This document shows, piece after piece, positions 28,891 through 32,630 of a stretch of 38,813 nucleotides of DNA. Source of the DNA: a virus. Lineage: Duplodnaviria > Caudoviricetes. The notes beneath the pieces were generated by a model that saw only the letters and a program-made list of their open reading frames with translations, did not search any database and was not told where the DNA came from. The stretch covers positions 1-38,813 of the IMG/VR virus record IMGVR_UViG_3300046000_005732. The stretch is one strand, 5' to 3'. Made by a program: the position numbers and the translations under genes. The first letter of the stretch is position 1, and each line of letters starts with the position of its first letter.

Positions 28891-29166
28891 TTAGTTATCC
28901 AAAATATGATCAGCAGGTTTAGCCCGCCGTAAATACGTTTCTTCATATCGGGTCTTTGAAGTAATTGGATCATAATATGTTTTTACTTTTTCATTAATTT
29001 CGTTTAGTAAAAAATGTAACAATTTTACTTGTATTCTTTTTGACATGGATTCTAAAACAATTTCTGCATCTATCCCTGTAGATATTTGTTTGATCGCAAT
29101 GCCATATTCAAAAAGACGAACTCTCTCCGACCAATTTTCATATGATTCGTCTTTTTGTTTTCTCAT
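28891..29166 (-). CDS. Stand-alone glutamyl-tRNA reductase (HemA) dimerisation-domain-like protein
   Basis: SERVRLFEYGIAIKQISTGIDAEIVLESMSKRIQVKLLH matches the HemA C-terminal pattern .E..R..EL..A.K.L..G.D...VLE.LS..L.NKL.H. Confidence 0.6.
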   Translation of the reverse strand: MRKQKDESYENWSERVRLFEYGIAIKQISTGIDAEIVLESMSKRIQVKLLHFLLNEINEKVKTYYDPITSKTRYEETYLRRAKPADHILDN

Positions 29167-29170
29167 AAAC

Positions 29171-29244
29171 TGGAGCGGGGTAGGAGAATCGAACTCCTTT
29201 GACTAGCTTGGAAGGCTAGGACACAACCAATATGACAACCCCGC
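29171..29244 (-). tRNA. trnG: tRNA-Gly(UCC)
   Basis: GCGGGGT acceptor stem, CTAGC-CTTCCAA-GCTAG, U73-CCA; slightly irregular D stem. Confidence 0.9.
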
Positions 29245-30226: not shown

Positions 30227-30255
30227 ATTATAACACCTTTTTTGCTAGGCGTCAA
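30227..30255 (-). promoter_or_regulatory. sigma70-type promoter TTGACG-N17-TATAAT
   Basis: Consensus spacing upstream of the YkuK gene. Confidence 0.8.
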
Positions 30256-31165
30256 GCTCTTTTTTACGGTTATCTATAATATGATTGTACATAATATCCT
30301 CTACTTTGCGTATACGTTCATATTTATCTTTGGCTCCAAGTATTACGACAGAATACATTTGTCCGTGTCGTTCTACTGCCAAAGCCAAACAATACCCCGC
30401 ATGACTAGTAAATCCCGTTTTGCTAACAACAATTGTATTGAATTCAAAAAGAACAGGCCTATTTGTATTATTCAAAGTAATTGTTCTAATTTTTTTCTTA
30501 TAAATTGTTTCAATTTCAATCTGCTTCTTTGTACTAATCTCACGTATAATAGGATATGATGCAGCATTTGCAACCATTGTTCCTATATCTATAGCAGTTG
30601 CTTGATTTTTAGCACTTATACCTGAGGGGTCATCAAACGAACTACTTATCATACCAAACTCTAAAGCTTTTCTATTCATTTGTTCTATGAACATTTTTCT
30701 TCCGCCAGGATATGCATTAGCTAAAGTTTCTGCAGCAGAATTATCACTCTTAACTAACATAGCACTCAAAATCTCATATCTAGTAAAATTCTTTTTTCTC
30801 GGTAATGATCCGCCGACATTTGAATTAATTTGCATTACTTTAGTTAAATCTTTATCATTATCAAGCGATACCATTGCTGTCATTAATTTAGTAACACTTG
30901 CAAAAGGCCTAATTTTATTTCCATTCTTAATATACTCATGTGTCTTTGTAGTATCATTGAATACTAAAATACTCGTAGTATCTGTACGAATTATTCTTTT
31001 CTTTTTAATATGCTTGTGTGGTTTAGCGTATGCACTCGCACAACATAAAATTAAAGATGTGAATAAAACTATGGCGCCCCGCCACGGAATCGAACCGCGA
31101 CTAACAGTTTTGGAGACTGCTGTGCTGCCACTACACCAGCGAGACTTGGTTGTTGCAAATATCAT
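30245..31165 (-). CDS. Peptidase S11 D-alanyl-D-alanine endo/carboxypeptidase (PBP7/PbpG-like), secreted
   Basis: SxxK (ASVTKL), SxN (SDN) and KTG motifs; signal peptide IVLFTSLILCCASAYA; AGGAG SD before ATG 31165. Confidence 0.9.
   Translation of the reverse strand: MIFATTKSRWCSGSTAVSKTVSRGSIPWRGAIVLFTSLILCCASAYAKPHKHIKKKRIIRTDTTSILVFNDTTKTHEYIKNGNKIRPFASVTKLMTAMVSLDNDKDLTKVMQINSNVGGSLPRKKNFTRYEILSAMLVKSDNSAAETLANAYPGGRKMFIEQMNRKALEFGMISSSFDDPSGISAKNQATAIDIGTMVANAASYPIIREISTKKQIEIETIYKKKIRTITLNNTNRPVLFEFNTIVVSKTGFTSHAGYCLALAVERHGQMYSVVILGAKDKYERIRKVEDIMYNHIIDNRKKELDA
31072..31145 (-). tRNA. trnW: tRNA-Trp(CCA), nested within the peptidase CDS
   Basis: GTCTCGC/GCGGGGC acceptor stem, GCAGT-CTCCAAA-ACTGT, TTCGATT T loop, G73-CCA. 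Confidence 0.9.
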
Positions 31166-31175
31166 TCTAACTCCT

Positions 31176-31200: not shown

Positions 31201-31770
31201 ATGAATCCATATATAGAATTAGAAATATCAATTGATGCGTCTGAAGATGAGATAAAAATCAAATTTAGATCTTTAGCGCAAATTCATCATCCCGACAAAG
31301 GTGGGGACGAGGAAGTATTCAAACGCATAAAATTAGCATACGAAATTCTGATTGATCCTATTCGCAGAAAAGAATATGATCTATTAGGTGAAGCGGATTC
31401 AAATCAAAATATTAAACAATCGGCATTAGATCATATCGCACAAATGTTACATGCAATTGTTCCAAATTTTAATCCCGAAAACGATGATCTAATTACTATT
31501 ATGGTTGGCCAAATTAATCAAATTAAAGTTGATATGGCTAACAATATTATAGTATGTGAGCAATATATATTACAACTAGAAAAAGTTATACGTAGAATAA
31601 ATTCGAAAAATAAAAATCGCAATATACTGTTAGATGTTGTTCAACTTCAAATAAAACAACGTAAACAGGAATTTGAAGATTTCAATACACGTATTAAAAT
31701 TTGTAATCTTGAATTGGAAATACTTAAAGACTATTTTTATGGGCTTGAAGAATTAGTAGCAATCAATTAA
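31201..31770 (+). CDS. DnaJ (J-domain) protein with a coiled-coil C-terminus
   Basis: NPY.EL.I...AS..EIK..FR.LA..HHPDKGGD...F..I..AY..L.DP..RKEYD. Confidence 0.9.
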   Translation: MNPYIELEISIDASEDEIKIKFRSLAQIHHPDKGGDEEVFKRIKLAYEILIDPIRRKEYDLLGEADSNQNIKQSALDHIAQMLHAIVPNFNPENDDLITIMVGQINQIKVDMANNIIVCEQYILQLEKVIRRINSKNKNRNILLDVVQLQIKQRKQEFEDFNTRIKICNLELEILKDYFYGLEELVAIN

Positions 31771-31992: not shown

Positions 31993-32085
31993 TGGTACTC
32001 CGGGAAGGACTCGAACCTTCTCTAACCGCCTATCTAGCGAATCGAGGTTATAAATCTCGTCGTGCTACCATTACACTACCGGAGT
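31993..32085 (-). tRNA. Non-canonical tRNA with a UAU (Ile) anticodon and a long variable arm
   Basis: ACTCCGG/CCGGAGT-ACCA acceptor; GTGT/GCAC D stem; CGAG(A)-TTTATAA-(C)CTCG anticodon arm; ~22 nt extra arm; GAAGG-TTCGAGT-CCTTC T arm. Confidence 0.75.
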
Positions 32086-32428: not shown

Positions 32429-32503
32429 TGGTCCGGCGTGCAGGAATCGAACCCACATCGAGGGAGTAGAAATCCCCTGTACTATCCGTTGTACTAACGC
32501 CAG
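32429..32503 (-). tRNA. trnR: tRNA-Arg(UCU)
   Basis: CTGGCGT/ACGCCGG acceptor stem, GGGGA-TTTCTAC-TCCCT, encoded CCA. Confidence 0.92.
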
Positions 32504-32601: not shown

Positions 32602-32630
32602 ATTTTAACATAAAATTACTTTTCTGTCAA
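32602..32630 (-). promoter_or_regulatory. sigma70-type promoter TTGACA-N17-TAAAAT
   Basis: Directly upstream of the tRNA cluster. Confidence 0.85.

Follow-up and report, generated by a model that had tools for sequence, protein, structure and literature searches.

A phage tRNA-Trp gene that probably doubles as coding sequence for the leader of a peptidase S11 enzyme

Background

In tmRNA (SsrA), the tRNA and mRNA roles of one RNA act together; the tRNA-like domain has no anticodon and does not include the coding part, and translation does not begin from a Shine-Dalgarno (SD) motif with ATG. The locus described here also unites tRNA and mRNA roles in one RNA, but here coding is done by a canonical tRNA, and the two roles would be mutually exclusive. 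Identity with tmRNA was rejected, ARAGORN and Rfam both calling a plain tRNA with an anticodon arm. SgrS/SgrT and RNAIII are base-pairing small RNAs that code for small proteins, and thus combine in one transcript coding and non-coding functions able to interfere with each other; here, by contrast, a tRNA is nested in the gene of a 300-aa enzyme. Dual-function bacterial RNAs are listed in a preprint (bioRxiv 10.1101/2021.06.30.450655). A trp-type leader-peptide attenuator, with a short leader ORF that has a stop of its own and tandem cognate codons, was also considered for the present locus and rejected, since the frame continues into the enzyme and its one shared Trp codon is found in unfused tRNAs as well.

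In mitochondrial tRNA punctuation, excision of tRNAs cuts the transcript between genes. This arrangement and the tRNA arrays of T4-type phages, whose tRNAs are released by host nucleases, resemble the present locus in placing a tRNA and a protein gene on one precursor that is cut by tRNA excision. In both of them, however, cutting takes place between genes and leaves the message whole or generates it, whereas here the cut would fall inside the coding sequence, past the start codon. According to a study of T4 tRNA maturation (PMC4810235), RNase III is involved and RNase P is the leader-removing enzyme. The encoded protein is similar to PBP7/PbpG in its SxxK, SxN and KTG motifs, its compact domain and its predicted signal peptide, and differs in being phage-encoded and in having the front of its leader coded by a tRNA. 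The cultured Limnohabitans phage DC31 is reported to have a gene for a D-Ala-D-Ala carboxypeptidase homologue (PMC12195039).

Genes for tRNA are treated as non-coding, and same-strand protein overlaps with them are usually discarded as errors. A paper by Jimenez, 'Protein-coding tRNA sequences?' (Gene 2022), reportedly deals with tRNA-derived peptide stretches in database proteins, some of them large, and is said to ascribe most to annotation errors; it may touch on cases such as this one. A search of the literature outside subscription papers and supplements gave no case of an entire tRNA kept in frame within the gene of an enzyme, and we did not find this kind of gene overlap described. A conserved case in which a whole canonical tRNA also spells the leading 24 codons of a real enzyme would demonstrate overprinting of tRNAs, and would mark signal peptides as a place where new coding sequence can readily enter. 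The locus would further allow ribosome loading and RNase P to be studied as competitors for a single RNA in a compact natural setting, and may be a means by which phages ration a cell-wall hydrolase.

Results and discussion

Locus and gene content

The window, that is, the whole stretch of DNA analysed (a virus record of 38.8 kb), contains a UvsX-like recombinase, a DnaB-like helicase, tail genes and nine tRNA genes, and by this content appears to be a fragment of a T4-like phage. Related records of 46-126 kb are 26-70% complete, indicating a genome near 180 kb. The features of the locus are collected in Table 1.

Table 1. Features of the tRNA-Trp/S11 locus and of the predicted promoters around it
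Feature	Position in window	Strand	Basis or remark
Shine-Dalgarno AGGAG	31171..31175	(-)	sequence; 5-nt spacer before start codon
ATG start	31163..31165	(-)	20 nt upstream of tRNA position +1
tRNA-Trp(CCA), 74 nt, discriminator G, encoded CCA	31072..31145	(-)	ARAGORN; Rfam RF00005 52.2 bits
Predicted signal peptide h-region and A-x-A cleavage site, residues 32-47	31025..31072	(-)	hydropathy; cleavage site by eye
306-aa ORF, peptidase S11 (PBP7-like D-Ala-D-Ala peptidase)	30245..31165	(-)	Pfam PF00768 115 bits
Sigma-70-like promoter (predicted), overlaps S11 stop	30227..30255	(-)	11/12 consensus, extended -10
Sigma-70-like promoter (predicted), head of upstream tRNA array	32602..32630	(-)	11/12 consensus, extended -10
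Weaker promoter candidate	31575-31546	(-)	sequence

The Rfam RF00005 match of the tRNA-Trp covers the full model, with no non-standard pair marked. Translated in frame, the tRNA gives residues 8-31 (24 codons) of the S11 ORF, which continues into hydrophobic residues 32-47, a Lys-rich linker and the S11 domain (residues 64-279). This bears out the initial annotation, in which AGGAG-N5-ATG at 31165 was read as opening a frame that crosses the tRNA-Trp without a stop, now followed for 306 codons to 30245, and that runs straight into a hydrophobic stretch and a PBP7-like enzyme. Its statements that no ATG, GTG or TTG lies between tRNA and signal peptide, that the next Met follows the catalytic SxxK, and that the tRNA part holds the only Trp codons of the protein also proved correct. 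Among codons 1-55, codon 1 alone is an in-frame ATG, GTG or TTG, codons 2-55 having none (checked on the identical locus L007); the next Met, M95, lies downstream of S90-V-T-K93; and the Trp residues are W10 and W29 only, both tRNA-coded.

A DnaJ-domain gene lies on the opposite strand (+) at 31201-31770, inside the tRNA array, and a DnaJ-like gene is found at the matching place in L014, L016 and L088. An ATAAATA motif about 20 nt upstream of the window gene abuts the ribosome-binding site of the S11 gene and resembles a T4-type late promoter.

Peptidase S11 domain

The match to PF00768 lies well above the gathering cut-off of 27.6 bits, and the three motifs S90xxK93, S140xN142 and K249TG are invariant in 19 of 19 aligned proteins. 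The best family match is the D-alanyl-D-alanine endopeptidase PBP7/PbpG (NCBIfam PRK11669, NF008668), at 156.8 bits, below the equivalog cut-off of 294; judged by these scores, the protein is a PBP7-like member of peptidase S11 that is not to be classed as PbpG. Both by sequence and by fold, the best PDB matches are 6MUQ and 6AZI, at about 30% identity. The AlphaFold model is confident for the S11 domain, with a helix at residues 31-38; residues 1-31 have pLDDT below 50 and are unstructured. Amongst annotated phages, 51 records match, all at less than 60% identity; the best 40 of the 51 are 23-33% identical, and none of these 40 covers the tRNA-coded leader. Only bacterial PbpG-like genes, with 31-41% identity, were encountered in a scan of genome contigs. 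In the catalytic domain, pS is 0.35-0.72 against a pN of 0.03-0.25 (ten pairs from five DNA sequences), which shows an S11 enzyme under purifying selection and a real gene.

Conservation of the overlap

The clade of the window protein was defined as 18 protein clusters (P0002-P0019) scoring at least 465 bits in a profile search, the next match having 371. The clusters are mostly 53-67% identical, and the clade is supported at 100/99 in a careful LG+G4 tree of 40 chosen rows; L104, whose domain is incomplete, was omitted from the trees. The tRNA-coded leader is present in 15 of the 18 clusters, with 10 distinct leader peptides among 41 proteins. In 13 clusters the representative itself begins with the tRNA-coded peptide, while P0017 and P0019 are shortened JGI calls, the leader being present in other members of their clusters on contigs of equal length. 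Outside these 15 clusters stand P0010, a JGI call from an internal Met, and P0011 and P0012, represented by protein sequences only, which have an ordinary Met start and are nested inside the clade (95/84). Given P0011 and P0012, the tRNA fusion is dispensable.

As a guard against gene-caller bias, the DNA of the clade was fetched by catalytic motifs alone, and in 12 of the 12 in-clade loci found in this way the tRNA lies in frame with an upstream ATG. The metagenome scan took in 9 of 64 parts and gained two informative loci, L104 and L088; chance matches of the pattern scan (e.g. L248, L251, L254, L257, L263, L277, L294, L322-L325) were not counted as S11 loci. Frame and cloverleaf, whose retention in homologues had been named at the outset as a check, are both kept in the clade loci with DNA.

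Several JGI calls (P0017, P0019, P0222, P0252) are cut after the tRNA on contigs of the same length as those in which other sources call the full frame (P0219, P0220, P0002, P0255), which suggests that genes of this kind escape annotation through masking of tRNAs; the enzymes appear to be shortened in JGI calls because tRNA overlaps are discarded as errors. The converse reading, that only the tRNA is used and that the peptidase frame is an untranslated remnant or an artefact of gene calling, is scarcely credible. Spurious peptides called across tRNAs are indeed common, as is seen with a profile of the leader, for which 51 of 58 hits are proteins of 134 aa or less (the five displayed of these run through tRNA arrays). 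But the error in JGI calls runs the opposite way, pN is far below pS, the three motifs do not vary, and the frames are intact across the clade. The remaining hits of this profile comprise five long ones that are repeats, P0424, which has its own Met after the tRNA part, and the clade representative P0014, the only long protein among the 58 that starts with the leader.

Start signal

Five junction types with DNA were compared. Four of them (L013, L104, L014 and L016) combine a 75-nt tRNA with an ATG at -4; the window type combines a 74-nt tRNA with an ATG at -20, and this displacement by 16 nt brings the frame back into register. All five have an SD match of 4-5 nt ahead of the ATG. The ATG is kept in three differing upstream contexts: in L014 and L016 it overlaps the TGA stop of a small ORF lying upstream, in L013 and L104 it falls within the last codons of this ORF, and in the window it occupies a short gap beside the divergent DnaJ-domain gene. 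In L014 and L016, its presence could partly be a by-product of the overlap with the upstream stop. P0230-P0233 retain the position of the Met with a different spacer, in which 4 of the 6 residues following the Met are not the same.

Six of the 378 unique phage tRNAs at the fetched loci are preceded, at no more than 30 nt, by an SD-ATG that opens a frame across the tRNA, namely five S11 fusions and one tRNA-His whose frame ends at CCA. When members of this tRNA-Trp family were sought in a tRNA-first scan, 78 matches were obtained, at 58 unique loci. An in-frame SD-ATG is found in all four S11-linked loci and in none of the 54 others (Fisher p 2.4e-6; the loci are not independent), eight of the latter having an in-frame ATG without SD. 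The frame through the tRNA is open in 39 of these 54 unfused loci. The lack of a stop, put forward as evidence in the initial annotation, is therefore true but weak by itself, open in-frame tRNAs being common in the family. It is the in-frame SD-ATG, not the open frame, that exceeds chance, and the start signal appears to be what is selected.

Long ORFs following tRNAs were surveyed at loci chosen around S11 genes, which are not independent. Of the 55 non-S11 ORFs of this kind, an ATG is found within 90 nt in 52 and a Met at codon 17-29 in the remaining three, so that all 55 have a Met in their first 30 codons; eight S11 sequences reach the end of the signal peptide without a Met. Initiation could instead take place just after CCA at a non-canonical ATA, ATT or TTG, with the G-rich 3' acceptor strand as ribosome-binding site and the tRNA left untranslated. 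Every type has one of these codons within five codons after the tRNA, which is about where ordinary S11 signal peptides begin, and several genes in these arrays start 1-5 nt past CCA. However, neither the codon nor the position of the candidate start is shared between types, the signal peptide would have little or no basic n-region, and both the SD-ATG contrast (4/4 versus 0/54) and the frame-restoring shift would be left unexplained. Starts at AUU and AUA are, moreover, rare and weak. A start after the tRNA is considered very unlikely.

Leader and predicted signal peptide

In the 14 leader-bearing proteins examined, the tRNA-coded leader has a net charge of +1 to +5 and is directly followed by a stretch with an 11-residue hydropathy of 2.3-3.4; the best value in the window protein is 2.81, from residue 32. 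The tRNA segment is predicted to form the basic n-region of a Sec signal peptide, which at 26-31 aa would be far above the usual length, the cleavage site being judged by eye. A twin-arginine signal was dropped, the RR pair being present in some leaders only. The codon spanning the CCA end specifies Lys in 4 of the 5 junction types. In the 54 unfused loci of the tRNA-Trp family (L327-L404), the residue just before the CCA end would be Asp in 46 and Gly in 8, and all fused copies code Gly there, possibly reflecting selection against an acidic residue before the h-region or else one inherited allele.

W29 is present in all 10 leader types and W10 in the window type only, and the rest of the protein is Trp-free in all 19 clade proteins listed. 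The overlap had initially been proposed to be a dual-coding switch linked to the supply of Trp-tRNA, which would require the ribosome to stall at the UGG in the tRNA when charged tRNA-Trp is short; besides the shared W29 and the Trp-free remainder, a small alternative hairpin with a U-rich run behind it is predicted at 31085-31071. The same UGG, in the 3' strand of the T-stem, is however also present in unfused tRNA-Trp (5 of 17, plus many in the tRNA-first scan, whose pattern required UGG), and other phage S11 proteins likewise have no Trp. No cognate AGA codon is found in the tRNA part of three S11 genes fused to tRNA-Arg(UCU) (L253, L256 and L281). The hairpin is weak, with a 3-nt loop and an imperfect U-run, and is made of standard tRNA sequence, and a stalled ribosome would be expected to sit on the tRNA and reduce its supply, which is the opposite of what homeostasis calls for. 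Dual coding, as one half of the original proposal, is well supported by the comparison; the other half, a regulated switch linked to Trp-tRNA, is unsupported, and stalling for want of charged tRNA is held to be very improbable.

Overlaps of other tRNAs with S11 genes

Many phage S11 genes directly follow a tRNA (Ala, Asp, Cys, Gly, Leu, Met, Phe, Trp, Tyr or Arg) and have their own ATG, and this is likely to be the ancestral state. In L088 (2882-2955), P0034 and P0150, a tRNA-Trp overlaps the S11 gene in another frame, with the ATG in the 3' acceptor strand. The sister of these three is L018, with an ordinary start (support 95/91), and their branch is separate from the window clade. The gene order of L088 is the same as in the window clade.

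A distant S11 family (100/100) crosses tRNA-Arg(UCU) in frame in seven DNA types (L253, L256, L268, L269, L281, L288 and L313), and a subgroup reads a second frame of the same tRNA (proteins among P0269-P0388). This overlap is an origin separate from the tRNA-Trp clade. Decayed tRNA-like leaders are also found in the family, for example in P0379, P0380 and P0384. Several of the Arg-fused S11 genes have a TTG 9 nt before the tRNA, beside the stop of the upstream ORF. The tRNA-Arg(UCU) of the window itself, at 32429-32503 (-), has an in-frame ATG in its variable region, as in Arg-fused S11 genes, with a frame that stops two codons past CCA; this ATG is a latent start of a kind that may have been co-opted by other phages.

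State of the tRNA

The features of a canonical tRNA-Trp are all present: full cloverleaf, CCA anticodon, G discriminator and CCA end, G73 being a Trp identity element. In four fused tRNAs, 96% of cells are paired and 4 of 21 pairs are changed on both sides; 58 of 500 shuffles reach this count, and 1 of 500 reaches the covariation score. One of the two-sided changes joins two synonymous third positions in the T-stem. These changes may predate the fusion, similar alleles existing unfused. In the tRNA part, pS is 0-0.43, below that of the domain, and between L014 and L016 it is 0.06 against 0.69 in the domain. A tRNA identical to that of L014 is found unfused at L344, L355 and L396, so coding has not reshaped the tRNA. 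The fused tRNA is the only tRNA-Trp-like match in 5 of 5 partial records (26-70% complete). By these features the tRNA looks functional. Weakening of the cloverleaf in favour of translation was discarded, the folding energy being -21.9 kcal/mol in fused (n=4) and -20.3 kcal/mol in unfused tRNA-Trp (n=17; p 0.14). Folds of the whole junction gave no shared alternative structure among four junction regions (z-scores -1.0 to 0.9).

Were the RNA a message only, the tRNA would be a relic kept for coding the leader. The degraded leaders of the Arg family would fit such a history, as would the N-termini of P0011 and P0012, which resemble the 3' end of the tRNA, and the 5 G-U pairs of the window tRNA-Trp. 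A relic is nevertheless very improbable in view of the constraint on synonymous sites, the two-sided T-stem change at synonymous positions, and the retention of anticodon, discriminator G and CCA; the existence of an identical unfused tRNA and the lack of a second tRNA-Trp match in the five partial records also speak against it. Conservation of the in-frame SD-ATG, retention of the frame over a change in tRNA length, an intact cloverleaf and purifying selection on the enzyme together support dual coding, and the overlap is very probably dual-use, with one RNA serving either as tRNA or as message.

Proposed mechanism and origin

Taken as a whole, the data are probably best explained by an either/or RNA, in which ribosome loading competes with tRNA excision and which originated through a lost ATG. 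Ribosomes would start at the upstream SD-ATG and read the tRNA as the basic front of the predicted cleavable signal peptide. With the SD-ATG transcribed before the tRNA finishes folding, a few ribosomes would load first, before the acceptor stem closes. Between ribosomes the cloverleaf would fold, RNase P cleavage at +1 would remove the start codon, and 3' processing of the tRNA would leave a start-less S11 fragment; that excision of the tRNA destroys the message would follow from known tRNA processing. Each transcript would thus yield a short, small burst of periplasmic D,D-peptidase and one tRNA, and enzyme output would be capped. The tRNA-coded residues would be removed with the signal peptide on export, leaving an ordinary periplasmic D,D-peptidase. 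We infer translation, tRNA maturation, export and the either/or fate alike.

The predicted promoter at the head of the upstream tRNA array is a candidate source of the transcript, which would have to reach the tRNA-Trp. In 4 of the 5 complete types a predicted sigma-70-like promoter overlaps the S11 stop; it may give the downstream genes a transcript of their own, sparing them.

The fusion would have originated when an S11 gene just after an array tRNA lost its own ATG and took the upstream one. It would be tolerated because the extra residues before the signal peptide are removed on export, and such tolerance of signal peptides would explain why all the fusions found are in this exported enzyme. 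Whether damping of enzyme output was itself selected is doubtful; the reversion in P0011 and P0012 favours mere tolerance of damping, and the repeated origins favour selection. A bolder and rather unlikely reading is that a peptidoglycan hydrolase has repeatedly been coupled to the maturation of tRNA in phages, the tRNA being a selected self-destruct timer or limiter with at least three origins (tRNA-Trp, tRNA-Arg and differing frames). If this were true, the ratio of initiation to host tRNA processing would set the amount of wall-cutting enzyme exported.

Other features of the tRNA array

A 91-aa ORF at position 29166 of the window begins 4-5 nt past the CCA of tRNA-Gly 29171-29244 (-), as it does in L013, L014 and L016; its initiation site therefore overlaps the 3' end of the tRNA or needs processing. 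At 31993-32085 (-), the window also carries a 93-nt tRNA with anticodon UAU, called as Ile, which has a long variable arm and is likewise found in L010, L016, L017 and L057. Such an arm is unusual for a bacterial-type tRNA-Ile.
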